A stretch of 18,378 nt of DNA from Alphaproteobacteria bacterium UBA6411 (GCA_002438565.1 DJPN01000015.1:14308-32685); one strand, 5' to 3'; counted from the first letter of the stretch, positions 121-16,972 are shown. The notes: a model not told the origin generated them from the sequence alone. Made by a program: numbers and translations.

Positions 121-867
121 TCAATCATAAAATTTGGCGTTTTTGTTATCGGACGTAACGGGGCGGGATGACAAATCATAAGTTTCCACATAAAAATTCA
201 GCGGATTCTTAAGCTGTTCATCCCTATTCGGATACTTGCGAGGCTCTCCGCCGAAACCTGTCGTCATCAGCACGCGGTATCGTTTTACGGTCGGTTCTTC
301 CTTTTCCGGAGAATGTTCTATCACGTCGAATTCGGCCAACCACAAGCCGGCAAAGACACGCTCAACAAAACGAATTTTAACTTCCGCCGTAACACCGTCC
401 AGCAATCGCGCGTTGTAGATTTTCGTTTCGTTCATAAACTGCCCTAAAATATTGTTTGAAGAAGCCCACCGAATAAAACTTCTCCCTCCCCAACGGGCTT
501 TCATTTCGTCAATATCGGGAACAATCGTGTGCCGCATTGTAATATATTGCTTGATATACTGTTCCATCAGCAATTCATTGGGGTTTCCCCAGACCATTGA
601 CTTTTCAATCGGATCCAGCCGATAGAACCGCTTGTTGATTGACAGTAAATTCGGATCGCTGCGCACCATCGGCGCCAGCAGATAAATCAATAATCCCCAA
701 ATAATCGCACCGCACAGCAATCCCGCCGCCACAAAAGCCATCACCCGCGACGTTTTCAAATAGCGGCGTTCCGGCATGGCATTGACATGAACACGCTCCG
801 GATATGCCCCCAGTTTGTCATTGGTGCTTTCGTCGATTGCCGAAAACAGAAATTTAAAAATATTCAT
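121..867 (-). CDS. VirB8-like type IV secretion component (bitopic inner-membrane protein)
   Basis: 248-aa ORF with a short cytoplasmic N-terminus, a single TM (VMAFVAAGLLCGAIIWGLLIYLL) and a ~180-aa periplasmic domain. LLMEQYIKQYITMRHT resembles the VirB8 helix-1 region. The C-terminal NPLNFYVETYDL resembles the conserved NPLGF-x-V-x-x-Y motif of VirB8. No other T4SS genes are in the window. Confidence 0.5.
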   Translation of the reverse strand: MNIFKFLFSAIDESTNDKLGAYPERVHVNAMPERRYLKTSRVMAFVAAGLLCGAIIWGLLIYLLAPMVRSDPNLLSINKRFYRLDPIEKSMVWGNPNELLMEQYIKQYITMRHTIVPDIDEMKARWGGRSFIRWASSNNILGQFMNETKIYNARLLDGVTAEVKIRFVERVFAGLWLAEFDVIEHSPEKEEPTVKRYRVLMTTGFGGEPRKYPNRDEQLKNPLNFYVETYDLSSRPVTSDNKNAKFYD

Positions 868-5381: not shown

Positions 5382-6803
5382 ATGAAGCAAATGCACTTTA
5401 CCAAAATTGTTTCCACTTTGGGTCCCGCGTCCGGTTCGCCCGAAATCATCAAAGCTTTGGCCAAAGCCGGCGTCAACGTGTTCCGGTTGAACTTTTCGCA
5501 CGGCTCGCACGAAACACACCGCCAAAACGTCGCCTACATCCGTCAAGCCGAAAAGGAAATCGGCCGCCCGCTGGCGATTTTGTGCGACATGCAGGGACCT
5601 AAACTGCGTATCGGCGTTTTCAAAGACGACTACATCGAATTGCATATCGGCGACAAGTTCCGTTTGGACATGTCCCCCGAACCCGGCGACAAAACCCGCG
5701 TCTGCCTGCCTCATCCCGAGATTTTCCAAGCCATGACGAACGGCATGGATTTGCTGCTGAACGACGGACTGGTGCATTTGCGCGTTGACGCCTTCGGCAA
5801 AGATTTCGCCGATACGACCGTTATCAGCGGCGGCCGCCTGTCCAACAAAAAAGGCGTCAACGTCCCCGGCGTTCCTCTGCCGATTGACGCGCTGACGGAA
5901 AAGGACAAAAGCGATTTGCAGGCGGCTTTGGACATGGGGGCGGACATGATCGGCCTGTCTTTTGTTCAGCGCCCCGAAGATTTGCTGCTGGCGCGTTCTT
6001 TAATCAACGGGCGCGCGTGGATTGTTTCCAAAATCGAAAAACCCGCGGCGTTGGAACATTTGGATGAAATCATCCGCTTGTCCGACGGCATCATGGTTGC
6101 GCGCGGCGATTTGGGCGTGGAAGTCCCGCCCGAAAAAGTCCCCGTTTTGCAAAAGAAAATCATCCGCGCCTGCCGCAAAGGCGGAAAACCCGTTATCGTC
6201 GCGACGCAGATGCTGGAATCCATGGTTGCAAACCCGACTCCGACCCGCGCGGAAGCGTCCGACGTCGCAACAGCCGTTTTCGACGCCGCCGACGCGGTCA
6301 TGCTGTCCGCCGAAACGGCGGCGGGGGCGTATCCCGTCGAAGCGGTCACCATTATGAATAAAATCATCATGGAAACCGAATCGCACGATTTGTACCGTCA
6401 ATATCTGGACGCGGCGCGGCTGAAGCCCGAACACACGCCCGAACACGCGATTACGGCGTCCGCCCGCGTCATGGCGGAAACGATGGAAGACGCCGCGGCG
6501 ATTGTGTCCTACACCATCAGCGGCGCGACGGCGGGGCGTGTATCGCGCGAACGGCCGTACATTCCCGTCATGTGCTTGACGCCCGACGAATCGGTCGCCC
6601 GTAAAATGAGCCTGTTCTGGGGCATCGAAAGCGTTACTTGCGAACCGCAGGATCTGCTGGTCGACGTTGCGCGCATCGCCGCCTGCAACTGCCGCAAAGT
6701 CTTTAATGCGAAAGTCGGCGACAAAATCATCATCACGGCGGGACTGCCGTTTAACATCACGGGCAACACGAACCTGTTGCACGTTTACACAATCGCCGAA
6801 TAA
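5382..6803 (+). CDS. pyk: pyruvate kinase
   Basis: ATG 5382 is preceded by AGGAG. Motifs TKIVSTLGPAS, NVFRLNFSHG, MQGPKLRIG, KIEKPAA, MVARGDLGVE, VIVATQMLESM and AVMLSAETA are diagnostic of pyruvate kinase. Confidence 0.96.
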   Translation: MKQMHFTKIVSTLGPASGSPEIIKALAKAGVNVFRLNFSHGSHETHRQNVAYIRQAEKEIGRPLAILCDMQGPKLRIGVFKDDYIELHIGDKFRLDMSPEPGDKTRVCLPHPEIFQAMTNGMDLLLNDGLVHLRVDAFGKDFADTTVISGGRLSNKKGVNVPGVPLPIDALTEKDKSDLQAALDMGADMIGLSFVQRPEDLLLARSLINGRAWIVSKIEKPAALEHLDEIIRLSDGIMVARGDLGVEVPPEKVPVLQKKIIRACRKGGKPVIVATQMLESMVANPTPTRAEASDVATAVFDAADAVMLSAETAAGAYPVEAVTIMNKIIMETESHDLYRQYLDAARLKPEHTPEHAITASARVMAETMEDAAAIVSYTISGATAGRVSRERPYIPVMCLTPDESVARKMSLFWGIESVTCEPQDLLVDVARIAACNCRKVFNAKVGDKIIITAGLPFNITGNTNLLHVYTIAE

Positions 6804-6819
6804 TCAAACAGATTATGAA

Positions 6820-6847
6820 AAAGCCCGCCGTTTGGCGGGCTTTTGTT
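6820..6847. terminator. bidirectional intrinsic terminator between convergent pyk and the lipoprotein gene
   Basis: AAGCCCGCC-GTTT-GGCGGGCTT is a perfect 9-bp GC-rich stem, flanked by an A-run upstream and TTTTGTTT downstream. Confidence 0.8.
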
Positions 6848-7636
6848 TCAGCCGTTTCTTAAAACAATGAATTCCAATTTTTCTTTGTCCGCGCGAATGA
6901 TGCGGATTTGCGCCCCGACCAAAGAAATAAAGGTCGCGTCCTTTGGAAAAGCAAGAGATTCAAAGCTTCCCTGCTCGCCGTTTGTACCGGGGACGGATTT
7001 TTTGTAAAAAAACGTGACTTGGTTGTTTTTGATGCCGTCGTACAGCACTTCATAGTCCATGAACGGACGGGAGTTTTCATAACTTGTCGCAATCCGTTTC
7101 AATCGCGGTGTTGACGGAACAAGCTTGCCCTTTTCACGGAAAACGGAAACTTTTTCCGAATCGCGGATTTGGTGCAGGAAACGCTGTTGAATCACGCCCG
7201 ACATATCCGCCAGCAAATAGATATTGCCCTGCGGCGGCAAAACGAAATACGATTCGCCGTCCAATTCAAACATTCCGAAAATCGGATATTCGCGGGCGGG
7301 CATTTTGATATGTTCGAACGCCGTTTGAAAATCTACGGGTTCCTCCAACATCATTTTGCTTTTGATATAATTCTGTTTTGTAAAGGCTTGGATTCGCAAA
7401 ACAGGTTCGCCGACATGGGCGATCATGCGCTTGTTAAGGATATAGTTGCGCTGATACACGGTTTCCGTGCCGTTAAAGATTGTTTCGGGCGGCGGCGGCA
7501 TAATCGTATAAGAACGCGCGGGCGCGGAATCGAACAGTTTGTCGTTTGACGCGTCGTTGAACCACGAATCCGGTATCAAAACGCACGCGGACAGCGCCAA
7601 AGGCATAACGGCAAGGGCGAAAACAGACTTAATCAT
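6848..7636 (-). CDS. hypothetical lipoprotein
   Basis: ATG 7636 gives MIKSVFALAVMPLALSAC, a signal peptide with an L-S-A-C lipobox. About 262 aa, no recognised family. The ORF-track N-terminal extension runs antisense through the rpmJ start and promoter region and was dropped. Confidence 0.65.
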   Translation of the reverse strand: MIKSVFALAVMPLALSACVLIPDSWFNDASNDKLFDSAPARSYTIMPPPPETIFNGTETVYQRNYILNKRMIAHVGEPVLRIQAFTKQNYIKSKMMLEEPVDFQTAFEHIKMPAREYPIFGMFELDGESYFVLPPQGNIYLLADMSGVIQQRFLHQIRDSEKVSVFREKGKLVPSTPRLKRIATSYENSRPFMDYEVLYDGIKNNQVTFFYKKSVPGTNGEQGSFESLAFPKDATFISLVGAQIRIIRADKEKLEFIVLRNG

Positions 7637-7678
7637 AAAAAAACTCCTTTTGCGGCGACAAGAATCGCCTTTTATGGA

Positions 7679-7707
7679 TTGACAATACCCGACATTCTTT
7701 GTATTGT
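7679..7707 (+). promoter_or_regulatory. putative sigma70 promoter of rpmJ
   Basis: TTGACA (7679-7684), a 17-nt spacer, then TATTGT (7702-7707), about 45 nt upstream of the rpmJ ATG. A perfect 8-bp inverted repeat GACAATAC/GTATTGTC (7681-7688 / 7701-7708) spans the two boxes. Confidence 0.45.
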
Positions 7708-7751
7708 CATCTAACTTCTTTAGAAGAACGTTAAGTTTTAAGGATTGTGCT

Positions 7752-7877
7752 ATGAAAGTTCGTAATTCCCTGAAGTCCGCCAAGCTGCGCGACAAAGATT
7801 GCAAAATCGTCCGCAGAAAAGGACGCGTTTACATCATCAACAAAAAGAACCCGCGCATGAAGGCTCGTCAGGGCTGA
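7752..7877 (+). CDS. rpmJ: 50S ribosomal protein L36 (Cys-poor, non-zinc-ribbon form)
   Basis: This ORF is below the ORF-track size cutoff. It translates to [41 protein letters not shown] (41 aa), matching the MKVRxSLK...RRKGRVYVINKxNPRxKARQG L36 pattern common in Alphaproteobacteria. Confidence 0.9.
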
Positions 7878-7904
7878 TACCGCGGACTTCGTTTTGAAGA
7901 ATTA

Positions 7905-7936
7905 AAAAGCTCGCTTTGATTAAGCGGGCTTTTTAG
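7905..7936 (+). terminator. intrinsic terminator after rpmJ
   Basis: AAAAAGCTCGC-TTTGATTAA-GCGGGCTTTTT forms a 7-bp stem (one G-U pair) followed by a T-run. Confidence 0.65.
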
Positions 7937-7965
7937 TTATGTCCGCCCTTTTGCAAACAGCCGGC

Positions 7966-8046
7966 CGCAATGACGGATCTTCCCATTTTCGTCATAACGA
8001 GGAAGGCTTTAGCCCGACGCGGTTATCCGTTTGCAGAGCGCCGATA
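7966..8046. repeat. REP/MITE-like intergenic repeat, copy 1
   Basis: CGCAATGACGGATCTTCCCATTTTCGTCATAACGAGGAAGGCTTTAGCCCGACG...TTTGCAGAGCGCCGATA. It is near-identical over the first ~54 nt to copy 2, which lies 121 bp downstream. It contains short internal hairpins (ATGAC/GTCAT, GGGC-TTTA-GCCC). Confidence 0.8.
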
Positions 8047-8086
8047 CAAACGCGGAGGCAGTGGATTGCGTTGTCGCTTCGCTCCG

Positions 8087-8168
8087 CGCAATGACGGATC
8101 TTCCCATTTTTGTCATAACGAGGAGGGCTTTAGCCCGACGAAGTGATCCATTTGCAGAATGCCGAATA
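8087..8168. repeat. REP/MITE-like intergenic repeat, copy 2 (abuts the prophage/IS110 end)
   Basis: Same unit as 7966-8046, with 2 mismatches in the first 54 nt and more divergence in the last ~27 nt. After GCCGA(A)TA, copy 1 continues CAAACGCGGAGG whereas copy 2 continues ACAGGTACGGGG. The homology therefore breaks at ~8168-8171. Confidence 0.8.
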
Positions 8169-8206
8169 ACAGGTACGGGGTTGACTGAGTCAATAGATCA
8201 ACCCAC

Positions 8207-9124
8207 TTAATCGATGTTTTTGCATTTAGCGTTTAAAATGATTATCATCTTTCGCATAACCGCCACAATGGCAACCATTTTTCTTTTGCCTTTTTGTATC
8301 AATTTTTCATAAAAAGCCCGCATAATCGGGTCTTTTTGAATTGCAACCAGCGAACAAATAAACAAAGTGCGTTTGACATCACATCGCCCGCCTATGACAT
8401 GGCGGACCTTTTGGATTGTTCCGCTGTCCTGTGCATACGGGGCAAGTCCCGCCAATGCCGCGATTTTTCGGCGGGACAGTATTCCTAATTCCGGCAGACA
8501 AGCCAGCAGAACGTTTGCCGAAGTTTCGCCGATTCCGATTTGAGAAGTCAAAGCCTGTTGTTTTTTCAGCAAAATAGGGTTCTGTTTGACAATCTCTTGC
8601 AATTCTTTGGACAGTTCATCAATTTCCGTTTGCAAAAATTCCGTATGCTTGCTTATTTCAAGGCGGATGCGCGGCACGGTTGACGGTGCGTTTAAGCGGT
8701 TTCTTTCGCTTTTCAAAATTTGTTTTAATTCCGTCAAGCGAAAAACATACGGTTTGATTTCATTTTCAATCGGCTGAAACAAAATCAATTTGTCTTGCAG
8801 TCTTTGCCCGTAATCCGCCAAAGCGCGCGCATCAATCGAATCGGTTTTAGCCAGTTGTCCGACAGCGCGCATAAAGGCTTTGACCTTTCGTCCTTCTGCG
8901 CGGTGAATGGCAAAACCGGCGCGATAAAACACATCAACGCAAGCGGTTTCGTATCCTCCGGTCAAATCTATCACCGCAAGGGTGTTTGAGCGACAATCGA
9001 TTTTTTGAACGAACTTTTCAATGTTTGCCGTGCTGTTTTTGACTTGCAACACTTCCCCGGTTTCCGACAAGAACACATCAATTTTTGTTTTAGAAACATC
9101 AACACCGATAAAGCGGGAAAACAT
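8207..9124 (-). CDS. IS110-family (DEDD / Piv-MooV type) transposase-recombinase
   Basis: 305 aa from ATG 9124 (MFSRFIGVDVSK), preceded by AAGGA. N-terminal RuvC-like DEDD motifs are GVDVSK, DLTGGYE and KTDSIDA. The C-terminal domain has IGIGETSANVLLA, AALAGLAP and the serine context YAQDSG. The 18-codon ORF-track extension was dropped. Confidence 0.9.
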   Translation of the reverse strand: MFSRFIGVDVSKTKIDVFLSETGEVLQVKNSTANIEKFVQKIDCRSNTLAVIDLTGGYETACVDVFYRAGFAIHRAEGRKVKAFMRAVGQLAKTDSIDARALADYGQRLQDKLILFQPIENEIKPYVFRLTELKQILKSERNRLNAPSTVPRIRLEISKHTEFLQTEIDELSKELQEIVKQNPILLKKQQALTSQIGIGETSANVLLACLPELGILSRRKIAALAGLAPYAQDSGTIQKVRHVIGGRCDVKRTLFICSLVAIQKDPIMRAFYEKLIQKGKRKMVAIVAVMRKMIIILNAKCKNID

Positions 9125-9268
9125 TTTTTTCCTTAAAATTATTAACGTGCGCGACAAACGGCACAGACAACCCATCAAGATAAAAAATATCGGTACGGCA
9201 CTCGATCCATTCGAGCTTTAAACTCCATTGCCACAGGTGCGCATACCGACAGCCACTTTTTCAGCGTG
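9125..9268 (-). ncRNA. structured ~145-nt leader of the IS110-family recombinase; candidate bridge/seek-type guide RNA (hypothesis)
   Basis: The inferred TSS lies just downstream of the 9272-9299 promoter. By eye, the minus-sense RNA forms a 5' hairpin GUCAC/GUGGC. It then forms a 12-bp bulged stem (plus coordinates 9237-9249 pairing with 9190-9201) enclosing a 21-nt unpaired segment and the hairpin CUCGA-AUGGA-UCGAG (9201-9215). IS110-group elements are known to encode their guide RNA 5' of the recombinase. No covariance model was run. Confidence 0.3.
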
Positions 9269-9271
9269 ACA

Positions 9272-9299
9272 ATGATATTTTATCGTTTAACGGTGTCAA
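9272..9299 (-). promoter_or_regulatory. putative sigma70 promoter for the recombinase leader
   Basis: The minus strand reads TTGACA (9299-9294), 16 nt, TATCAT (9277-9272). It sits immediately downstream of the hairpin and T-tract at 9312-9331. Confidence 0.5.
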
Positions 9300-9311
9300 G
9301 ATTGTTTGATG

Positions 9312-9331
9312 AAAAAAGCTGCCGCTTTTTG
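9312..9331. terminator. bidirectional terminator-like hairpin
   Basis: AAAAAGC-TGCC-GCTTTTT forms a 7-bp stem, with an A-run on one side and a T-run on the other, so a U-tract follows on either strand. Confidence 0.5.
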
Positions 9332-9337
9332 CTTTTT

Positions 9338-9640
9338 AAAGCTTTCAGCTTTACGGCTTGCGCCGTGTTTGTCCCCCGAAACGCCCCAAAGGGGCTTGTC
9401 TTGGTTTGTAAAGGCACAGCTTCGCATAAAAAAGCGGTATCCCCGATTTTCGGGCTTTGCCCTGCAAAACGGGAGATACCCCTCCGCTTTTTTAACCTTG
9501 ACAAACCGCTTTTTCTCATCGCCGAAGGGCTAGTTCTCAAAAGGGAACGCTGACGCTTTTCCTTTTGAGAGCCCTTTGGTTTGATGAGAAAGCTCGGCGT
9601 TCGTCGGGGACATTGTTCCCGAACGGGAGCTTTGCCCCGG
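9338..9640 (-). other. hairpin-dense non-coding region (candidate inovirus intergenic region: packaging signal and/or replication origins)
   Basis: Successive imperfect hairpins lie at 9338-9352 (AAAGCT/AGCTTT) and 9383-9395 (GCCCC/GGGGC). A branched one at 9428-9493 has outer stem AAAAAAGCGG/CCGCTTTTTT and inner stems GGTATC/GATACC and CCCGA/TCGGG. The hairpin at 9517-9586 has ~24 bp with bulges and a core CTCAAAAGG/CCTTTTGAG. The hairpin at 9606-9638 has ~12 bp. No credible ORF is present. Confidence 0.4.
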
Positions 9641-9672
9641 CATTGTCAACCTTCATTGATGGAGGAAATCAA

Positions 9673-9750
9673 ATGACCAAGCAAAGCCTGCCAACAATCC
9701 TTTTGTTGGCTCTTATCTTCTTGCTTAGCTTTGTAAAAGAAGCGATGTAA
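9673..9750 (+). CDS. 25-aa hydrophobic peptide (possible type I toxin-like or small membrane protein)
   Basis: GGAGGA lies 6 nt upstream of ATG 9673. The product is MTKQSLPTILLLALIFLLSFVKEAM, with one TM-length hydrophobic core. It is convergent with the DUF2726 gene and shares the 9759-9795 hairpin. Coding status is unproven. Confidence 0.35.
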   Translation: MTKQSLPTILLLALIFLLSFVKEAM

Positions 9751-9758
9751 GAAAAACT

Positions 9759-9795
9759 TAAGCCCCTTTGATGTTCACAGCATCTTAGGGGCTTA
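9759..9795. terminator. bidirectional terminator between the small ORF and the DUF2726 gene
   Basis: TAAGCCCCT...AGGGGCTTA is a perfect 9-bp stem with an inner GATG/CATC extension. On the minus strand it is followed by AAGTTTTTC; on the plus strand by ATTTAAAT. Confidence 0.6.
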
Positions 9796-9822
9796 TTTAA
9801 ATAACCAAGCATCTTTATATTT

Positions 9823-10326
9823 TCACATTTCCGCGCTTTTTTCAAGCAGGTTTTCGACTTGCAGGCGCAAACCGTCAAAATCGATTTTTGAAGCGGGCTT
9901 AAACCGCAAAACGGTAATTCCGGCTTGAGCCAAAAACTCGTCGCGTTCTTTGTCTTTTTGTTTTTGCTTCAAGCTGTTGTGCGTCGCGCCGTCCAATTCG
10001 ACAACACAGCATTGATTTAACGCTTTGTCGAACACGACAAAATCAACGTGAGCCGCCAGAATTTTTCCTTTCGACGGAAAATTCAAAGGTTTCAGCAGTT
10101 CAATCAAAGCGACTTGCGGAAACACATAAAAATCGGGCAGAGCTTCAGCCAATTTGAAAAAGAACGCGCGTTCGGATTTCGTCATAAAGCTTTGCGCCGC
10201 ATAGGCGTATTTTTTCTTTTTTGTAAACAGCAACGCAACGGCGAAAACAATCGCCAGCAGAATAAATAAAGGCAAAAATTGAGATAAAGGCGCAATCAAA
10301 GTTTGAATCATTTTAAAACCTTTCAT
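9823..10326 (-). CDS. membrane-anchored DUF2726 (restriction-endonuclease-like fold) protein
   Basis: An N-terminal TM (LPLFILLAIVFAVALLF) is followed by TKSERAFFFKLAEALPDFYVFPQVAL...HVDFVVFDK...VVELDGATHN...ERDEFLAQAGITVLRF. This matches the DUF2726 pattern (L-T-x-x-E-x-x-F, VDFV, ELDD/G-x-x-H, RD-x-F, G-I/L-P/T-x-L-R-F). The second ATG at 10311 has the better RBS (AAGG). Confidence 0.8.
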   Translation of the reverse strand: MKGFKMIQTLIAPLSQFLPLFILLAIVFAVALLFTKKKKYAYAAQSFMTKSERAFFFKLAEALPDFYVFPQVALIELLKPLNFPSKGKILAAHVDFVVFDKALNQCCVVELDGATHNSLKQKQKDKERDEFLAQAGITVLRFKPASKIDFDGLRLQVENLLEKSAEM

Positions 10327-10365
10327 ATAGAAACTGTTTTAAAGTGCCCGTTTTAACTTCAAATG

Positions 10366-11496
10366 TCAATTCTCCACTTTTTTGATTTCCAGGCTAAGGA
10401 TGATTTCTGTTTTGTCGTTGGTATTGGATTTAGAGCCGAAGAAGTCGGGGAGGAAGGACAAGCCGGCTTTTGAACCCGTGTTTTTGGTTTCGTTCAGACC
10501 GCCGAGGATGACGGTTTCGCCGTCGTTTGCGGTGATTGTGGTTTTGATTTCCCGCTTGGTCAAAGTGGGCGAGCCGTTGACCCCGTTTGCGGTTTCCCCG
10601 AAGTTGCTCATTTCCTGCCGGACGGTCAGCGTGATGCTGTTTTCGTAGATTTCGGGCGTCAGTTCGAATATCAGACCGCTTGAGCGGTAAACGACCGACT
10701 GGACGGGCTGTCCGTCCTGATACGTCACGCTGCCGAGCGTCGGAACGTCCGCGCCGACCGTCAAAGTCGCCGTTTTGTTCGCCTGTATCCTCAAGCTCGG
10801 TTCGCTAATCAGTTTAAAGCGGTCGTCCTTGTCCAATGCGCTAAAGTAAGCGTTGACGTGGCTGTCCTTGAACGACAAAAAATTGACCAGCCGGCTGCCC
10901 GAACTGACGGCAAGCCCCGCGTTTTTGAACACGTCCGCGATGATGCTCAGACTGCTTGCGTCCGTTGTCTTTTTGCTGACCTCGTAGATTTTGCCCCGCA
11001 CGACCAATTCGGCAGGTTTTGTATCGAACGTTTTGAGAATTTTCCGCAGCTTTGCCGTTTCCGCCTTTGCGCCTTTAAAGACAATCTGCCGTTCGTCCCC
11101 CGCAAACTGCCCCGCGAACATTCCGCCCAAAGCCTGCCGCAGCTGTGCCACGGACTTATGTTTCGGCGCGTACACGACAAAATCCAAGTCCTCGACCTTG
11201 TCCGCTTTGCCGATGTAATCGACCCCGTTCCTCGTTTCGACCTTATAGCCCATGGACGACAAAAACGCCGCCAGTTTCTTTTTGTCGCGGAAGTCGTAAA
11301 CCCGTATGTTGACCGTCCGTTCGTCCGTGACGACTTCCGGTTCAAGCACGTAATCCGTCCCCAGCGTTTCCTGATAGACGGTCCTCAAAAACGCGCTGAT
11401 TTTGATATTGTCGAATGACAAACTTGTCAGCGGCGCGTTCGTTTCGGCGGGGGCGGCTATCAGCAAAACCGCAAGGCAAAGAATCAACTTTTTCAT
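10366..11496 (-). CDS. secretin, filamentous-phage pIV-like export channel
   Basis: Signal peptide MKKLILCLAVLLIAAPAETNA. The C-terminal secretin domain reads VGADVPTLGSVTY...SSGLIFELTPEI...TLTKREIKTTITANDGETVILGGL...LSFLPDFFG. The start overlaps the Zot stop (ATGA). Confidence 0.88.
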   Translation of the reverse strand: MKKLILCLAVLLIAAPAETNAPLTSLSFDNIKISAFLRTVYQETLGTDYVLEPEVVTDERTVNIRVYDFRDKKKLAAFLSSMGYKVETRNGVDYIGKADKVEDLDFVVYAPKHKSVAQLRQALGGMFAGQFAGDERQIVFKGAKAETAKLRKILKTFDTKPAELVVRGKIYEVSKKTTDASSLSIIADVFKNAGLAVSSGSRLVNFLSFKDSHVNAYFSALDKDDRFKLISEPSLRIQANKTATLTVGADVPTLGSVTYQDGQPVQSVVYRSSGLIFELTPEIYENSITLTVRQEMSNFGETANGVNGSPTLTKREIKTTITANDGETVILGGLNETKNTGSKAGLSFLPDFFGSKSNTNDKTEIILSLEIKKVEN

Positions 11497-12518
11497 AGCA
11501 TTAGACCGCCTTTCTTATCTTCCGCTTTAAAGTCGCCCGAGAAGTAGGTCACCTTTTCCCCGTCGACGTATCCCGTCATTTTCAAGCCCGTATTTGTAAA
11601 ATTTTGCGGATGCTCGAACCGCATTGCCCCGTTTTTGTCGACAAGGACGACATACCGTTCCGTTCCGCTTCTCAGCACGCCTTGAATCCGCCAGCGTTTG
11701 GACGTGTTGTCGAACTTCCGCGGCGGAGCTTGAACGGTTTGCGCCGCCGGTTGCGTCGCTTTGTTTGCTTTTTGCTTGATTTTGTTCGTGTCGAAGATTC
11801 CGAAGAACGCTTTGAACATTATCGGCAAAAACGTCAAAAATCCAACCGCCAGAGCGATGCGGAACGGCGTAAACGCATTTTGACGCGTATCCGTTACCGC
11901 CTGTCTGCCGCCGCTTTTATAAAGCTTGAAGATTTCTTCCTGGTACTTAAAAAAGCTCGGACCGGAAAGTCTTAATCCCGTTTCGACCTCGTGCACCGTG
12001 ACCGAATAGCGATTTCGCATGCCCAAAAACTTCAGATTCCGCATACTGTAAGTGTTTTCGGTCGCGTCCCTTATCAATTTCGGCAAATCGCTAAATCTTT
12101 GGCACAGCAGCACAATGTCCGACCCGACGTCCTTTTCCGTCGTATAATGTCGATGTTTGCGGAAGTATTTAAAATCCGCCTTTTGAACCTTTTCACCCTG
12201 CAGATAAAAGTTTTGCGCTTCGTCGATGACGACCAAGTCCCCCGGCTGGACAATCGACCAAGTATCCGTTTCGGATGTCGGAAAGAATCCCGGTTTCGTG
12301 ATGTCGTCGTCGTCGACCTTTAAAATCGAACCGAACTTCAAGACGGTTTCGACATCTCCGCCCGCGGGTTCAAGGTATCGTTCAATCGCCCGTTCGTCGA
12401 TGCCGTCGATGTTGGTGACGATTCTTCGTCCCGTCTTAAACGCGGGCAAGATGACATTTTTGACGACCTCGTAACTTTTGCCCGATCCGGGGCGACCCGT
12501 ATAAACCGATATTGCCAT
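11493..12518 (-). CDS. Zot / pI-like phage assembly ATPase
   Basis: N-terminal Walker A (YTGRPGSGKSYE), Walker B (LVVIDEAQ) and a central TM (FRIALAVGFLTFLPIMFKAFFGIF). The position immediately upstream of the secretin is the classical gI-gIV arrangement. Confidence 0.9.
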   Translation of the reverse strand: MAISVYTGRPGSGKSYEVVKNVILPAFKTGRRIVTNIDGIDERAIERYLEPAGGDVETVLKFGSILKVDDDDITKPGFFPTSETDTWSIVQPGDLVVIDEAQNFYLQGEKVQKADFKYFRKHRHYTTEKDVGSDIVLLCQRFSDLPKLIRDATENTYSMRNLKFLGMRNRYSVTVHEVETGLRLSGPSFFKYQEEIFKLYKSGGRQAVTDTRQNAFTPFRIALAVGFLTFLPIMFKAFFGIFDTNKIKQKANKATQPAAQTVQAPPRKFDNTSKRWRIQGVLRSGTERYVVLVDKNGAMRFEHPQNFTNTGLKMTGYVDGEKVTYFSGDFKAEDKKGGLML

Positions 12519-12521
12519 GCT

Positions 12522-12809
12522 TTACCCCAAGAACGGAACGCGGCGAACCATAAACCGCAGCAAATACGCGCTTAAAACCATGCTGAACCCGTTTGAGAAC
12601 TGCATAATGTCCAGAAAGTACCACAATCCCGCGGGCAATCCGCCGAACAGCTCGTCGAACCCCGCGAACGTCGGCAGTTTGTCGGCGATAAAGCCGATAA
12701 ACTCGTGGACGACAAAATACAATCCCGCGAACAGCACAAACTTGATGACCACGGTTTTCAAAAACCAGGTCAATCCCGTAAATATCGCAGAATACAGCAA
12801 TCCGTACAT
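12522..12809 (-). CDS. pVI-like minor coat / membrane protein
   Basis: 95 aa with about three hydrophobic segments. It lies between the pIII-like and Zot genes, as gVI does in Ff and ace in CTXphi-type phages. The call rests on position and composition. Confidence 0.55.
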   Translation of the reverse strand: MYGLLYSAIFTGLTWFLKTVVIKFVLFAGLYFVVHEFIGFIADKLPTFAGFDELFGGLPAGLWYFLDIMQFSNGFSMVLSAYLLRFMVRRVPFLG

Positions 12810-12813
12810 TTTT

Positions 12814-14577
12814 CTATGCTTTCAAAAACACGAACAGCGCGGCGATTGCCCATATCACCGAACACACGGATTTCAGCAAATCCCGATGTTGCTCCAGCAA
12901 ATCGCAATGGCTTTCGATGACGTATTCCTTGCCCCAAAGCTCAAAAGTCGGGCGATAACATGCGCTTTCGTGGTCAGGAACTTGGTAATTTTGAAGCGCG
13001 GGGAACAGGTCGAATATCGGCTGCAGTATCGCCGACGCTTCCACGGGTTCAAGTGTCGGTTCCGCCGCTTCCGGGTATTGTCCCAAGTCCAGATTGACGT
13101 TCACGTCAACGTCGATGTTGCCGTCCTTGACTGTTCCCGTGCTGTTTCCCGTTCCCTCGACCTTGCCCGCGTCGACGTTCGGCGACGTGTTCTTTATCGG
13201 GTCTTTCACGCCGTCCGTGTCGGGGTTTGTCGGCGTTTCCGTCAAGCTTCCCGTCGACGTGTCCGTTTTCAATCCCGTTCCGGGGCGCACGCCCGAACCG
13301 CTCGCCGTGTCGACTATCGTTTCCCGCGCGTCCCCGATTGTCGGCAGGTTCGGCGCAAGCTTTTTCACATCCTCCGCCGTCAGTTTCTTGCTTTCGTCAT
13401 ACGGCAAGCCGTCGTATCCCTCGGCGGATGTCGCGTCCTTATAAAGCTTGTTGACCGCGTCCGCGACAAACTGCGCGGGCAGTTCGTTTTCCAGCGTTTT
13501 GGAATCAAGCCCTTTCAGATACTCCGTCAAAGGCTGATTGAGCGTTTTTGTACTTGTCCCGTTCAGCTTGTCCGCCGCTATTTTGTTGATGTTCGGGCTG
13601 TTCAGCGTTTCCTTGTCGGTATAACTGCTTAACCATTCCGCCACGTTCTCACAGTAGTAGTTGTAGGCAAACTGTCCGTCGCCGCAATACTCCAAAAACG
13701 CCCCGCGGTGCATATAAATAAGAATGTATCCCGTTTGCTCTTCCGTTCCGTCCTTGGACAAGTATCTGACTTCCGCCAAATACCCTTGAAACACTTTTTT
13801 CGTATGGTCGTACTGACTTTCATAATCCCAATACGGCTTCAGTTCGCCCGTAAAGTAAAACGATTCCACCGACACGTCGCCGTTGTACAGTTTAAGCGTG
13901 TTGTATCCGTTGTTTTTATAGTTTGAATCGCCGTAGAATTTCGCCTGCAGATACTTTTGCGCTTCCGCGACCGTCCAAAACACGCCGTCTTGCGCATACT
14001 TTGTAATTCCCCAACCCGAACCCTCAAAGTCCGTTGTAATCTTGCCCGTTGTTTGCGGGTCGCCTTGTTCAAAATTATACGTTACTTCCGTTCCGTCGCC
14101 TTTGACGTAACTTCCGCTTTTTACCGCCGTCGGCAAACTCGCGACTGCTTCAACCGTATAAACGGCGTTTGTGATCGTTTGTGTCGTCGTTTCGACGACG
14201 GGCACTTCGTCGTTTTCCGTTTCTTCCGTCGCGACGATGATTTCCCCGCTGTCGTCCTTGGCCAGCCAAACCTTGATTTTTTCCCCGAGCTTCAGCAGGT
14301 AATTCCCCGCAACGTCCGTAATCAAATATCCCGCCAGCAGATACAGCCATGACACGGGACCGCCGAACACCGCCGTTGCCGCTGTCGCCGCCGTCGAAAG
14401 AACCGTGCTCGACCCCGTCACCAGTCGCAAACACCTGTTGTCGTTCGCGGGTATCGGCGCGCAGATTTTGGTTACCCCGCGCGACACGATTTGACGAACC
14501 GCCGCCGCTTGGAACGACGCCCATGCGCTCGATGTCAGCAGGCAAACGATGACAAATACGGCAACGACCTTACGCAT
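12814..14577 (-). CDS. pIII-like adsorption / minor coat protein
   Basis: 587 aa with an N-terminal signal peptide (MRKVVAVFVIVCLLTSSAWA). A low-complexity Gly/Thr/Asp/Pro linker (ASGSGVRPGTGLKTDTSTGSLTETPTNPDTDG...) precedes the C-terminal domain. The C-terminal membrane anchor is VCSVIWAIAALFVFLKA. It is the largest gene and sits downstream of the major coat gene. Confidence 0.65.
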   Translation of the reverse strand: MRKVVAVFVIVCLLTSSAWASFQAAAVRQIVSRGVTKICAPIPANDNRCLRLVTGSSTVLSTAATAATAVFGGPVSWLYLLAGYLITDVAGNYLLKLGEKIKVWLAKDDSGEIIVATEETENDEVPVVETTTQTITNAVYTVEAVASLPTAVKSGSYVKGDGTEVTYNFEQGDPQTTGKITTDFEGSGWGITKYAQDGVFWTVAEAQKYLQAKFYGDSNYKNNGYNTLKLYNGDVSVESFYFTGELKPYWDYESQYDHTKKVFQGYLAEVRYLSKDGTEEQTGYILIYMHRGAFLEYCGDGQFAYNYYCENVAEWLSSYTDKETLNSPNINKIAADKLNGTSTKTLNQPLTEYLKGLDSKTLENELPAQFVADAVNKLYKDATSAEGYDGLPYDESKKLTAEDVKKLAPNLPTIGDARETIVDTASGSGVRPGTGLKTDTSTGSLTETPTNPDTDGVKDPIKNTSPNVDAGKVEGTGNSTGTVKDGNIDVDVNVNLDLGQYPEAAEPTLEPVEASAILQPIFDLFPALQNYQVPDHESACYRPTFELWGKEYVIESHCDLLEQHRDLLKSVCSVIWAIAALFVFLKA

Positions 14578-14653
14578 CCAAGCCTTTCACCGCCGCCCAT
14601 CCGCAGCAGATGCCCAATGCAAAAAAACACAAATACCACCATTCAACCAGCAT
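14570..14653 (-). CDS. 27-aa hydrophobic ORF between the major coat and pIII-like genes
   Basis: Below the ORF-track cutoff as an independent start. GAAAGGGG lies 7 nt upstream of ATG 14653. The product is MLVEWWYLCFFALGICCGWAAVKGLDA. Its stop overlaps the pIII-like start by 8 nt. The size and hydrophobicity are reminiscent of the pVII/pIX class. Confidence 0.35.
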   Translation of the reverse strand: MLVEWWYLCFFALGICCGWAAVKGLDA

Positions 14654-14742
14654 GCCGTTGCCCCTTTCCGCTTGTCCAACGCGCGCGCCGCTCCCGCCGC
14701 GCACTTTGGACAAGCGGGACGTGTGCACCCGTCCCCCTCGCC

Positions 14743-14991
14743 TTAACCGCGGAACATGCTGAACAGTTTGCGAACGCCCCACACCAGGACCAACAAACCC
14801 ATAATCACGCCCGCAGCGTACAAGATGCCGCCTTTCGCGTCCGACACGTCAATCGCTTTCGCCATATCGGTCAAGGTCGTTGCGGTGGTTCCGCCCGCCG
14901 GATCTTCCGCGTGCGCCGCCCCCGCCATGAACGTCGATGCCGCTACCGCGGTCATTGCCAGTTTGTTTTTCAGATTTTCCAATTTAACCAT
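14743..14991 (-). CDS. major coat protein (pVIII-like) precursor
   Basis: The signal peptide is MVKLENLKNKLAMTAVAASTFMAGAAHA|E. The 54-aa mature part has an acidic N-terminus (EDPAGG), a hydrophobic core (ILYAAGVIMGLLVLVWGV) and a basic C-terminus (RKLFSMFRG), the canonical inovirus coat architecture. Confidence 0.78.
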   Translation of the reverse strand: MVKLENLKNKLAMTAVAASTFMAGAAHAEDPAGGTTATTLTDMAKAIDVSDAKGGILYAAGVIMGLLVLVWGVRKLFSMFRG

Positions 14992-15050
14992 TTTTCTTTT
15001 CCTTTGTTTGTTTTTCCCCGGATTCGCGTCCGGTCCGCTTCCCGCTTCTT

Positions 15051-15677
15051 TCAGCGGAAACTTTTCATCACTTTCTTTGCTCCGAACGCCAATATCGCAA
15101 CTGCCAGCATCGTTCCCGCGCCGTACAAAACCGCATCCGTAGCGTCCGCCAAGCTCAATCCCTCAACCATTCCCGTCAAACTTTCCGTTTTCGTCGGCGG
15201 TGTCCAGTTCGCCAAATCCCTGTTCGCGTATTCGCGCTGCAAATAATCAACCTCCAGACGACCATCAACCAACCATTTTCCGTTGGAATACACACCTACA
15301 TTTAAAAGTGTCTGCCGAACCCAATCGCCGTCGAGATTGTTTAAGCAAGTGCGCGCTCCTTTAGAAGGCCCGTCAAAACATCGTGGGTCTGTCGCGGCCT
15401 TGTAAAATAAACTGTTTGGATGTTCTTCAACTTCAGATTTGGGAACTCGCCGGTTTATTGCCGATAGTTCAAACTCATAGTCCGGCATTTCCGGCGATAT
15501 TTGATAATTCCGATCCGAAAAACACGAAACTTGCGCGCAAAAATCACCGGAATATATGCCCTCGTATAGAGCTTTCACAGTCGCATCGTCCGCTCCTGAA
15601 ATATTAAAATCGCTGGAAAGCGTATACTTTGAATCTCGCCCCTTAAGGTTGATTAACAGTCCCGCGTAATCGGTCAT
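15051..15677 (-). CDS. 208-aa protein with a C-terminal major-coat-like domain fused to a ~165-aa Cys-containing N-terminal domain
   Basis: The last 43 aa (SLTGMVEGLSLADATDAVLYGAGTMLAVAILAFGAKKVMKSFR) align without gaps to the mature coat protein of 14743-14991, with 14 of 43 identical. The hydrophobic core and basic tail are in the same positions. The start has an ATGA overlap with the upstream gene. No N-terminal signal peptide is evident. Confidence 0.6.
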   Translation of the reverse strand: MTDYAGLLINLKGRDSKYTLSSDFNISGADDATVKALYEGIYSGDFCAQVSCFSDRNYQISPEMPDYEFELSAINRRVPKSEVEEHPNSLFYKAATDPRCFDGPSKGARTCLNNLDGDWVRQTLLNVGVYSNGKWLVDGRLEVDYLQREYANRDLANWTPPTKTESLTGMVEGLSLADATDAVLYGAGTMLAVAILAFGAKKVMKSFR

Positions 15678-15910
15678 TCTTTAATCTCCGCCTTGAACAG
15701 CCGGATCATCGCCCCCGCGCCCGCCGCTATCAGATAACAGCACAGCACGGGACCGAACCCCGCCGCGAAAAACTCCGCTGCCGTTGACGCGTCAAAGATC
15801 GTCGGATCGCTCGAATATATATACCCCTCGACAAGCTTTAGCCCTTGTCCCTCCGGGCATATCCCCAATTCGTCCGACAGTCCTTCGACACACGTCAACA
15901 CCCGCTGCAT
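15674..15910 (-). CDS. 78-aa protein with a coat-like C-terminal TM segment (possible minor coat protein)
   Basis: The C-terminus DASTAAEFFAAGFGPVLCCYLIAAGAGAMIRLFKAEIKE shares the D-A...[FY]-A-A-G...hydrophobic...R-x-F-K pattern with the two downstream coat-like genes. It lies 3 nt after the upstream gene. Confidence 0.5.
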   Translation of the reverse strand: MQRVLTCVEGLSDELGICPEGQGLKLVEGYIYSSDPTIFDASTAAEFFAAGFGPVLCCYLIAAGAGAMIRLFKAEIKE

Positions 15911-15913
15911 CGC

Positions 15914-16231
15914 TTACAGCTCCGCCTTGAATTCCGCCACTTTTCGCAAATCGGCAATCCGCCCGTACAGCTTGTTGCCTTTGCCCTCGACGTATTCGAT
16001 TTTTGCGTCGTAATATCCCGGCGTCACTCCCGCAACCATTTGCGCCTTTTCGTTCATGAACGATGTTTCCGCGCTCACAAACCCGTTGCCCTTGTCACCC
16101 TGCGGACGCGCTTCCAAGTAGTTCAGTTTCCGCCCGAACACTTTTTCACCCGTCCCTTTGTCCACAAAGTCAAACACGTCCACGCCCGTCACCAATATCC
16201 GCTTCGTCCGCGTCATCCCGTTTTCACTCAT
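15914..16231 (-). CDS. putative ssDNA-binding protein (gV-like; by size and position only)
   Basis: 105 aa, soluble, with a beta-rich-looking Gly/Lys/Val composition. It lies between the replication module and the coat genes, where inoviruses place gV. AGGAAG RBS. No motif-level support. Confidence 0.4.
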   Translation of the reverse strand: MSENGMTRTKRILVTGVDVFDFVDKGTGEKVFGRKLNYLEARPQGDKGNGFVSAETSFMNEKAQMVAGVTPGYYDAKIEYVEGKGNKLYGRIADLRKVAEFKAEL

Positions 16232-16327
16232 CTTTCTTCTTCCTTTTCTCTACTTTCCATTTTTTCCCGTCCTCTCTCTCCCGTTCCCATGCCCGAGGAC
16301 CTCAAACATGCGGGGATTTTTTCTGGG

Positions 16328-16585
16328 TCACAAATACTTGTTTCGTATAGCGTCCCGCCGCGAAATCTCGGCTTTCAAAGACGCGATTTTCTTGTCTGCC
16401 GCCCTTATTTGCTTGTCCTTAGCCCTTATTTGCTTGTCCTTAGCCCGTAGTTCAAACATCCCGGCAATCAACCGCCAGCCTCTGATAACCAGCAAAATCG
16501 TTAAAATACAACTTGCCGCCAGCAATATCGCCGTCGTCACGTCTTCCATGTGCATGCTTGCCAATACCGTTTCTGTTAAGTTCAT
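16328..16585 (-). CDS. 85-aa TM plus coiled-coil protein with an internal heptad duplication
   Basis: An N-terminal TM (AILLAASCILTILLVI) is followed by RAKDKQI-RAKDKQI-RAADKKI, encoded by the 21-bp tandem repeat at 16401-16446. Confidence 0.5.
   Translation of the reverse strand: MNLTETVLASMHMEDVTTAILLAASCILTILLVIRGWRLIAGMFELRAKDKQIRAKDKQIRAADKKIASLKAEISRRDAIRNKYL
16401..16446. repeat. 21-bp in-frame tandem repeat (about 2.2 copies)
   Basis: GCCCTTATTTGCTTGTCCTTA occurs at 16401-16421 and again, identical, at 16422-16442, followed by a partial GCCCG. A degenerate copy lies just upstream (CTTGTCTGCC). Confidence 0.9.
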
Positions 16586-16588
16586 TTC

Positions 16589-16972
16589 TTAAAACCTTTC
16601 AAAACTGTAGCTTTTCAGCTCGTAATTCGACGACCTCGCGTAACTTTTAAAGCCGTTTCCCGACAGCGTTTTGCGGTATGACCACATATCCGCCGCCCGT
16701 TCCCGTCGCTCCAGCTTGTCAAGTTGTCGTTCCTTGTAAGCCAGATACCGCTCCGAATACGCCCGTTTGCGCGCTTGATACGCTTCCCGTTCCGCCCGCG
16801 CTTTCTTCTTTGCCGCCTTGTCCCTCGCCTTTTTGTCCGCGTCAAACAAAGCCATTATCGCGACAAATCCGAACAGCAGTATTTGCACAAACGACAGCTG
16901 TTTCGCCGTTTCCAGCAACGCCGAAATCACATCCGGCACCGCTTGCGCGATTATGTCACCTAAGCTCATCAT
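16589..16972 (-). CDS. 127-aa TM protein with a highly charged Lys/Arg/Glu-rich C-terminal region
   Basis: TM segment FVQILLFGFVAIMALF, then KKARDKAAKKKARAEREAYQARKRAY... The start (ATGATGA) overlaps the Rep stop. No family recognised. Confidence 0.5.
   Translation of the reverse strand: MMSLGDIIAQAVPDVISALLETAKQLSFVQILLFGFVAIMALFDADKKARDKAAKKKARAEREAYQARKRAYSERYLAYKERQLDKLERRERAADMWSYRKTLSGNGFKSYARSSNYELKSYSFERF

Follow-up and report, generated by a model that had tools for sequence, protein, structure and literature searches.

An IS110-type bridge-recombination module as the probable integration system of a filamentous prophage in an uncultured gut alphaproteobacterium

How would a filamentous prophage without a tyrosine or serine integrase enter the chromosome of its host? 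The question is raised by an 18,378-nucleotide (nt) stretch of DNA from Alphaproteobacteria bacterium UBA6411 (GCA_002438565.1 DJPN01000015.1:14308-32685), hereafter the window, in which positions are counted from the first letter. The host is an uncultured gut alphaproteobacterium, and the prophage ends in a gene for an IS110-family recombinase. A preliminary description had proposed this recombinase as the phage integrase, acting on a host repeat that resembles repetitive extragenic palindromic (REP) sequences. We consider it likely, with a probability of about 0.85, that the last 1.1 kb (8197-9299, minus strand) are an IS110-type bridge-recombination module serving as the phage integration system, which would place the whole phage into an AT core within a REP-like motif. 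As had been stated, no tyrosine or serine integrase is found among the window open reading frames (ORFs) scanned, and the recombinase gene is oriented like the phage genes, with Rep, Zot, secretin and DUF2726 all on the minus strand.

The span first assigned to the recombinase, 7966-9124, holds it at 8207-9124 (minus strand), while 7966-8196 proved to be host repeat. The 305-amino-acid protein matches Pfam PF01548 (DEDD_Tnp_IS110, 1.5e-13) and PF02371 (Transposase_20, 3.7e-12), and scores 147.5 bits against NCBIfam NF033542, "IS110 family RNA-guided transposase" (cut-off 140). Among solved structures (PDB) its match is IS621 (E 9e-27); in the alignment, D9, both Asp of KTDxxDA and the catalytic Ser of the SG motif are kept, and the position of the IS621 Glu is occupied by Asp. 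The protein is thus predicted to combine an N-terminal DEDD RuvC-like domain with a C-terminal Tnp domain carrying the catalytic Ser, the architecture of IS110 bridge recombinases.

The exact protein is encoded on at least 22 public contigs, which allows the phage boundary to be read by comparison. Samples with the phage include SRR5325861, ERZ27300204 and ERZ808252. Ten aligned contigs with an identical recombinase are the same through ...TAA GTGGGTTGAT and then enter three unrelated host contexts: the repeat downstream of rpmJ, the coding sequence of hsdR (a type I restriction subunit, cut after ...NGTEGERL) and the stop codon of a gene for a 75-amino-acid protein. Upstream of this point the contigs are 99.1-100% identical to the window throughout the phage DNA that they hold (1.4 to 6.2 kb). 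The divergence therefore places the junction at 8196/8197, so that 10 nt separate it from the stop codon, where ~37 nt had first been described, and the phage DNA found upstream at all sites implies that the DNA that moved included phage DNA. The question whether the same recombinase occurs linked to the phage or alone is answered in the same way, as identical copies always have phage DNA upstream, at least 2.3 kb of it, and different DNA after GTGGGTTGAT. This right end, GTGGGTTG-AT, is conserved in relatives whose recombinases are 68-97% identical, and its last 2 nt (8197-8198) are the AT core dinucleotide common to element and target. A TG core was also considered and rejected in favor of AT, given that intact repeats read GCAAT|CCATT and that handshake positions account for the extra pairing. 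At the hsdR site (L002 2425-2439; also L007, L009 and L054) the insertion deprives the protein of about its last third, and a host restriction gene appears to have been inactivated by the phage as a result.

On the host side, two direct repeats of 79 nt, 90% identical (7966-8044 and 8087-8165), lie between rpmJ and the recombinase, and the repeat unit extends to 8196. Look-ups with rpmJ returned other species, among which L040 alone was informative through its intact copies of the repeat, which read ...GGAGTCAATGG-AT-TGCTTCGTCG. The insertions in L021 and L065 are flanked by the same repeat family. L021, whose recombinase is 97% identical at the amino acid level, is an independent insertion at the same position of the repeat in another locus, bearing out the proposal that the recombinase targets a REP-like repeat. 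The continuation predicted for the far prophage end, CAAACGCGGAGGCAGTGGATTGCG, needs revision: its ATTGCG tail alone would lie past the phage, and the rest is host DNA at 8168-8196.

Relatives that are 69-70% identical carry both junctions on one contig. In L061, the left junction reads ...GTCGAAAAAG-AT|TATTACTTG..., about 95 nt upstream of Rep, and the right junction reads ...GTGGGTTG-AT|ATCTCC...; the 8,820 nt between the two AT cores hold a complete inovirus gene set. When the L061 flanks are joined they give an open frame of 102 amino acids, which has no Pfam match and is weak evidence alone. The contig L047, 92% identical to the L061 phage, opens with the core T and TATTACT, and its other end lies 3 nt past the right end. 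In the 36-kb contig L070, an insertion of 5.6 kb lies between sodB and hpnE (sodB|GTAAAGTT-AT|phage...GTGGGTTG-AT|hpnE, with the phage left end reading AT|TATTACTTGA), and holds a truncated Rep (Rep'), Zot, secretin, DUF2726, the phage intergenic region, the RNA described below and the recombinase. As both junctions enclose the phage in L061 and L070, the mobile unit is the phage and not a 1.1-kb insertion sequence (IS), which agrees with the role first proposed for the recombinase. The DNA to the left of the L061 insertion (1-940, recombinase-forward) has 31% G+C, against about 50% in phage and host, and may be either another mobile element or a product of chimeric assembly.

Smaller units also occur. 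L048 has, at the same sodB/hpnE site as L070, a 2.4-kb unit (5965-8399, recombinase-forward) that keeps only the recombinase module with its bridge RNA, the intergenic region and DUF2726. Its left end, TTG-AT-TTTTACT, is internal phage sequence that lies between secretin and DUF2726 in L063 (~2030-2050), which identifies L048 as a deletion derivative; the recombinase itself may have produced the deletion, acting at an internal site that resembles a donor end. In L022 (1-2726, Alphaproteobacteria bacterium UBA6324), about 700 nt separate a Rep fragment from the intergenic region and recombinase that come after it, and this arrangement suggests another decayed or miniature form. Among the copies examined, none has the 1.1-kb module between two stretches of host DNA, the smallest unit being the prophage-derived one of 2.4 kb. 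A circular junction (GTGGGTTGAT followed by the phage left end) was not found among the contigs searched, and scans of viral contigs with the right-end sequence, the left-region sequence and the protein returned nothing.

The DNA upstream of the recombinase had been described as non-coding and hairpin-rich. There is indeed no long ORF in 9125-9822, and 9300-9822 folds as single-stranded DNA far better than shuffled sequence (z = -7.2), which fits the expectation for an inovirus intergenic region. The spacer also contains, however, a promoter and a predicted bridge RNA of ~140 nt (Table 1). The minimum free energy structure of this single stretch has two stem-loops, each with an internal loop (z = -2.9). 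We aligned eleven sequences, the window and ten relatives from genome and metagenome collections with recombinases 68-97% identical. Across this alignment, pairing is kept in 95% of cells for the 34 proposed pairs, against 40-55% for controls with slid partners, and five pairs show compensatory changes on both sides. The guide loops are identical in all ten contigs with the identical recombinase, L007 alone having one stem change (C to T). No Rfam family matches the RNA. Its predicted form, two stem-loops with internal loops beside the gene, is that of the IS110 bridge RNAs. The donor outer stem pairs a U-run and UCUU with AAGGAAAAAAA, which is the recombinase ribosome-binding site (RBS) and the first base of its AUG. 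With these bases inside the stem, RNA folding and translation of the recombinase may be coupled.

Both loops can be compared with the DNA that they would recognize. The reverse complement of the right target guide (RTG) of the window is ATCCATTC, and the host flank AT|CTATTG matches it with 6 Watson-Crick pairs and one G-T pair of 8. Together the left target guide (LTG) and RTG spell CTGTGGCAAT|CCATT, 17 nt of the REP motif; this motif (CTGTGGCAATCCATT) stands intact in a repeat of the same family beside the L021 insertion. L021 and L065 share the window RTG and have the flanks AT|CCATTG and AT|CCATTT, relatives with the RTG GUCAAGAU sit at AT|CTTTTG, and L061, with the RTG GCGGGUAU, sits at AT|ATCTCC (ATATCTCC). 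Shuffling guides against sites gives p ~0.012 on 11 pairs, a modest value that comes from few distinct classes. The left halves agree as well: the L070 LTG GUAAAGUUAU matches the left flank GTAAAGTT-AT at 10 of 10 positions, as does that of L048 (10/10), and L061 matches at 8 of 10. The right half is matched over the core and 3 nt in L070 and L048, and at 7 of 8 positions, with wobbles, in L061. The LTGs of L021, L065 and L047 (UAAAGCAAU, UGAAGCAAU and GGAAGCAAU) match the intact L040 repeats, which read ...AAAGCAAT|CCATTG and ...GAAGCAAT|CCATTGAC, the latter also given as GAAGCAAT|CCATTGACTCC. The target loop thus appears complementary to the right half of the site in the window and to both halves in L070, L048 and L061. 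The LTG of L022 (GGAAAAAGAU) fits the L061 insertion site better than the guide of L061 itself.

The second loop probably corresponds to the phage. Its left donor guide, UGGGUUG, is identical to the 7 nt that immediately precede the core at the window right end (8199-8205). The right donor guide GUUAAUAAU (GUAAUAAU-type), the complement of ATTATTAAC, does not vary among the eleven sequences, and 7 contiguous nt of it match AT|TATTACT, the left end in L061, L047 and L070. These comparisons suggest that in sibling phages the target loop may have been naturally reprogrammed to different host sequences (UGUGGCAAU, UAAAGCAAU, GGAAGCAAU, GUAAAGUUAU and GGAAAAAAAU) with the donor loop remaining fixed on the phage ends.

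In the framework established for IS621 and related elements (PMC11208160, PMC11208158), the following course of integration can be proposed. The promoter at 9272-9299 would drive synthesis of the bridge RNA, which would run into the 5' untranslated region of the recombinase. The first internal loop (UGUGGCAAU and GAAUGGAU) would pair with the host target CTGTGGCA-AT-CCATT, present in the REP-like intergenic repeat, and the second (UGGGUUG and GUUAAUAAU) with both phage ends as joined in the circular replicative form (...GTGGGTTG-AT-TAT...). The DEDD/Ser recombinase would then exchange strands at the shared AT core, presumably by the chemistry of IS621, and the whole circular phage would be integrated so that the recombinase gene forms its right end and is separated from host DNA by 10 nt. 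The left junction, and with it the left end of the window prophage, would be expected to read, in the orientation of the recombinase, host ...CTGTGGCA-AT|TAT... phage (on the window plus strand: phage end, AT, TGCCACAG), and the circular junction would read AAGTGGGTTGAT and then the phage left end. The target expected for the window guides is CTGTGGCAATCCATTT, and that for the L070 loop (GUAAAGUUAU/GUCAAGAU) is GTAAAGTTATCTTTTG.

Several observations weigh against this reading. The left donor guide is unpaired with the core, having UC where AU is expected. The hsdR and 75-amino-acid-gene sites match the right guide over the core and 3 nt only, their left halves being unseen; an intact hsdR allele was searched for, but the search was swamped by distant HsdR proteins and gave a single usable homologue, 81% identical, which continues ...ERL-DC... 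and is compatible with ...GCA-AT at the protein level only. The covariation comes from few independent lineages, and would support the two-loop fold short of proof. The window ends inside Rep, and the left junction of its prophage was not recovered. In addition, phages with a Zot 100% and a Rep 96-98% identical lack the module (L046, L072 and L078/79). The preliminary description had counted the same phage without the recombinase as grounds for giving up the idea; such phages exist, yet we do not take them as a refutation, because the same pattern is known for the Thermus phages phiOH3 and phiOH16 (PMC11437467). Finally, in the metagenome-assembled genome (MAG) that holds the window right junction (L001), the one left side recovered for an identical Rep (L074) has the order LprI, intergenic region (IG'), X, regulators, Rep. 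This is the recombinase-less arrangement, which means that the MAG of L001 may contain two copies or a rearrangement, and that the window may join parts of two.

The terminal ORF of the recombinase-less form, of 69 amino acids, duplicates the 3' end of an LprI-like gene of the host. This form always occupies one locus, PPIase-LprI/His_Phos_1 (L046 17529-18972; L072 17832-19289; L074 6077-8727; L025, L027, L029 and L034 ~9000-10800). Phage-free genomes keep a two-gene islet at this locus, and in L027 and L034 the islet is flanked by inverted TTTTGCTTGCAATCCATAGAGAGA, which resembles the recombinase target (GCAAT|CCAT). Four leads to the far end or to the structure of this region were dropped. 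A candidate left junction in L074, GAAATGGC-AT|TATAATAAG, was rejected because L046 and L072 have this sequence too, after the LprI 3' fragment. The left part of L011 had seemed to prove an IS inside the phage intergenic region, but the order intergenic region, X, regulators is normal in siblings (L046, L074). A third regulator module (L012, L017) is a truncated view of module ii, and a 140-amino-acid regulator, followed as a route to the far prophage end, has its homologues in a conserved chromosomal islet extending from His_Phos_1 to Pro_isomerase.

The best-surviving alternative accepts a phage-borne module but makes the window a composite, in which the right end at rpmJ was joined, by assembly or by homologous recombination between prophage copies, to a body whose left end lies at the LprI/PPIase locus. 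In GCA_002431425.1 the phage is indeed split over contigs, L001 starting in the secretin gene and L074 ending after Rep, and in metagenomes either of two right ends is seen joined to the same body. Assembly gives this body as short contigs, broken at points where variants diverge; a look-up with Zot returned no contig above 10 kb, and none in the index spans the whole window. Partial links nevertheless run through it at 99.8-100% identity, from the 587-amino-acid gene to the host repeat (L005) and from Rep to the secretin gene (L011-L013). We regard a composite window as improbable. It would leave the nature of the module and the origin of the right junction unchanged, although the full structure of the window prophage is unproven.

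The module could also be an ordinary IS110 element that landed at the prophage end and moves alone, the phage integrating by other means. It does have the size and layout of the IS110 group, with a short right end, a left non-coding region of ~175 nt containing the RNA and a gene of 918 nt, and both the siblings without the module and the 2.4-kb derivative without morphogenesis genes could be read in this way. However, wherever a right-flank site comes with enough DNA, the upstream neighbor is the intergenic region with DUF2726 and never host DNA, the junction pairs of L061 and L070 enclose phage genes, L048 is a deletion derivative at the site occupied by the 5.6-kb insertion of L070, and the -35 box of the promoter lies inside phage DNA. 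Together these observations largely refute an independent IS, which we consider very improbable. Integration by the host XerCD recombinases at a dif-like site, in the manner of CTX-phi and with the IS110 gene as a bystander, could draw on the half dif-like site noted in the preliminary description and on the need of the recombinase-less siblings for some other route, but it has the slightest chance of all, contradicted by a boundary that consists of the conserved recombinase end and AT core at many unrelated sites, including hsdR and the 3' end of hpnE, and by flanks that match the RNA guides.

Table 1. Features of the window. All assignments are from sequence comparison, profile matches or predicted folding.
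Feature	Position	Strand	Basis or remark
Host REP-like repeat downstream of rpmJ	7966-8196	.	two units; second cut by the insertion at ...GAGTCAATAG|AT
Element right end, 5'-GTGGGTTGAT-3' (GTGGGTTG-AT)	8197-8206	-	copies at three host sites identical to here, unrelated beyond
IS110-family (DEDD + Ser) bridge recombinase, 305 amino acids	8207-9124	-	ATG at 9124; Pfam, NCBIfam and PDB matches
Predicted bridge RNA, ~140 nt	9125-9265	-	5' end placed from promoter; 3' end runs into recombinase RBS and AUG
Donor-binding loop module	9124-9187	-	predicted from likeness to element ends
Donor loop outer stem	9177-9187/9124-9134	-	covers RBS AAGGA and A of AUG
Right donor guide region GUUAAUAAUUUU	9135-9146	-	fold
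Donor loop inner hairpin	9147-9164	-	fold
Left donor guide UGGGUUG	9168-9174	-	equals right end
Target-binding loop module	9189-9250	-	guide/flank complementarity; intact motif beside L021
Target loop outer stem	9237-9250/9189-9201	-	fold
Handshake CG	9203-9204	-	target loop
Right target guide GAAUGGAU	9205-9212	-	fold
Target loop inner hairpin	9213-9225	-	fold
Left target guide UGUGGCAAU	9227-9235	-	fold
Sigma-70-like promoter TTGACA-16-TATCAT (11/12)	9272-9299	-	complete in the integrated state
Phage intergenic region	9300-9822	-	presumed origin or packaging signal; strongly structured as single-stranded DNA
DUF2726 (nuclease-fold) protein, 167 amino acids	9823-10326	-	adjoins intergenic region and recombinase module wherever upstream DNA suffices
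Secretin	10366-11496	-	profile match
Zot-type assembly ATPase	11493-12518	-	profile match
Inovirus structural and accessory genes	12522-16972	-	gene calls
DUF2523-like protein, 79 amino acids	12522-12761	-	Pfam DUF2523 match on L011
Putative adsorption protein, 587 amino acids	12814-14577	-	gene call
82-amino-acid protein	14743-14991	-	gene call
Further ORFs of 208, 78, 105, 85 and 127 amino acids	within 12522-16972	-	gene calls
Replication initiator Rep (Rep_trans-like)	16969->18378	-	full protein 508 amino acids; start ~117 nt past window end

The gene content of the window is that expected of an inovirus prophage, with Rep, a Zot-type ATPase, small putative coat genes and a structured intergenic region in one orientation, and a secretin is also encoded. 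The intergenic region is kept in L022, L024, L046 and L048. At its start, opposite to the phage genes, a hydrophobic ORF of 25-26 amino acids (MTKQSLPTILLLALIFLLSFVKEAM, 9674-9751, plus strand) is followed by a hairpin; it recurs in L074 (~7665-7745) and L048 (~6725-6805), and diverged relatives conserve it at the protein level (...FLLSFIKEAM, ...FWFCFIKELS). The phage family has two distinct DUF2726 genes; the one at 9823-10326 is always beside the recombinase module, and the other, of 189 amino acids (L014 1181-1750), sits in a divergent regulator module upstream of Rep. Host genes to the left of the recombinase include rpmJ (7754-7879), pyruvate kinase and tRNA-Val (4-78). At the outer host end of the window, beside tRNA-Val, a gene with a VirB8 domain (121-867, minus strand) stands alone.

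IS110 transposases have already been proposed as inovirus integrases in Neisseria and Thermus; what is new here is the explicit guide RNA and the host group, uncultured gut Alphaproteobacteria. We know of no genetic tools or phage biology for these hosts. The locus is probably the first explicit example of viral lysogeny guided by a bridge RNA from the virus itself, with target loops reprogrammed among siblings, a fixed donor loop, a constitutive promoter, a masked recombinase start and a cargo of 9 kb to an estimated 12-13 kb moved from the circular form. The 20-year-old inference of integration by the phage's "own transposase" would thereby gain a mechanism, the sequence itself giving the guide RNA, the core, the target motif and both ends, and a whole virus would be seen as natural cargo of bridge recombinases. 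The guide variants that occur naturally among close relatives, at known sites, would also be useful for studying specificity and off-target use, as one guide is also found inside hsdR and beside the 75-amino-acid gene. In the literature library searched, no paper was found that links a bridge RNA to the integration of inoviruses, including Nf, an absence that is no proof. Many gut inovirus records carry IS110-type genes, 22-32% identical to the window recombinase.

Bridge RNAs of the IS110 group were described in 2024 for stand-alone elements, several of them REP-targeting (Durrant et al. 2024, PMC11208160; Hiraizumi et al. 2024, PMC11208158). The window module resembles IS621 in its two-domain DEDD and Ser recombinase, in a guide RNA just upstream of the gene with the target loop before the donor loop, in a left guide of 9 nt with the core at its end, a short right guide and a 2-nt handshake, and in its short right end and preference for REP-type repeats. 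It differs in its core (AT, against CT in IS621), in protein sequence (~25-30% identity), in a promoter that is complete without circularization, in a donor-loop stem that covers the recombinase RBS and AUG, and in its cargo, a filamentous phage of 8.8 kb (L061) to an estimated 12-13 kb against none. ISPpu9, ISPpu10 and ISPa11, which are stand-alone IS110 elements targeting REP (PMC12288879), are likewise guided by RNA into a REP-like palindromic repeat, always at the same position; they are elements of 1-2 kb with host DNA on both sides, whereas the window element was never seen without phage DNA.

Closer in biology are two groups of inoviruses. The Thermus phages phiOH16, Zuza8 and Zuza27 carry an IS110-family transposase at one prophage end, proposed as their integrase, and phiOH3 is a near-identical sibling of phiOH16 without it, pointing to module swapping (PMC11437467). 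The terminal IS110 gene and the siblings without it, here L046 and L072, recur in the phages described above; the proteins are 27-29% identical, and PMC11437467 reports neither guide RNA nor target analysis. For the Neisseria Nf/MDA filamentous prophages, to the extent that PMC7058167 recounts Kawai et al. 2005, a Piv/IS110-type transposase of their own was proposed as the integrase, acting at dRS3 repeats with a CT motif. On that account the common features are an inovirus, a recombinase as terminal gene, a dispersed host intergenic repeat as target and variable sites; the differences are the AT core and another repeat in place of the dRS3 CT motif, the phage-encoded secretin and DUF2726, the guide RNA identified here, and a host from the Alphaproteobacteria instead of the Betaproteobacteria, which agrees with the unrelated lineage first claimed. 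The likeness is one of mechanism only, and in this sense integration of the Nf/MDA type is indicated by the right end of the window, by both ends of L061 and L070, and by the REP-like target in the window, L021, L065 and L047/L060.

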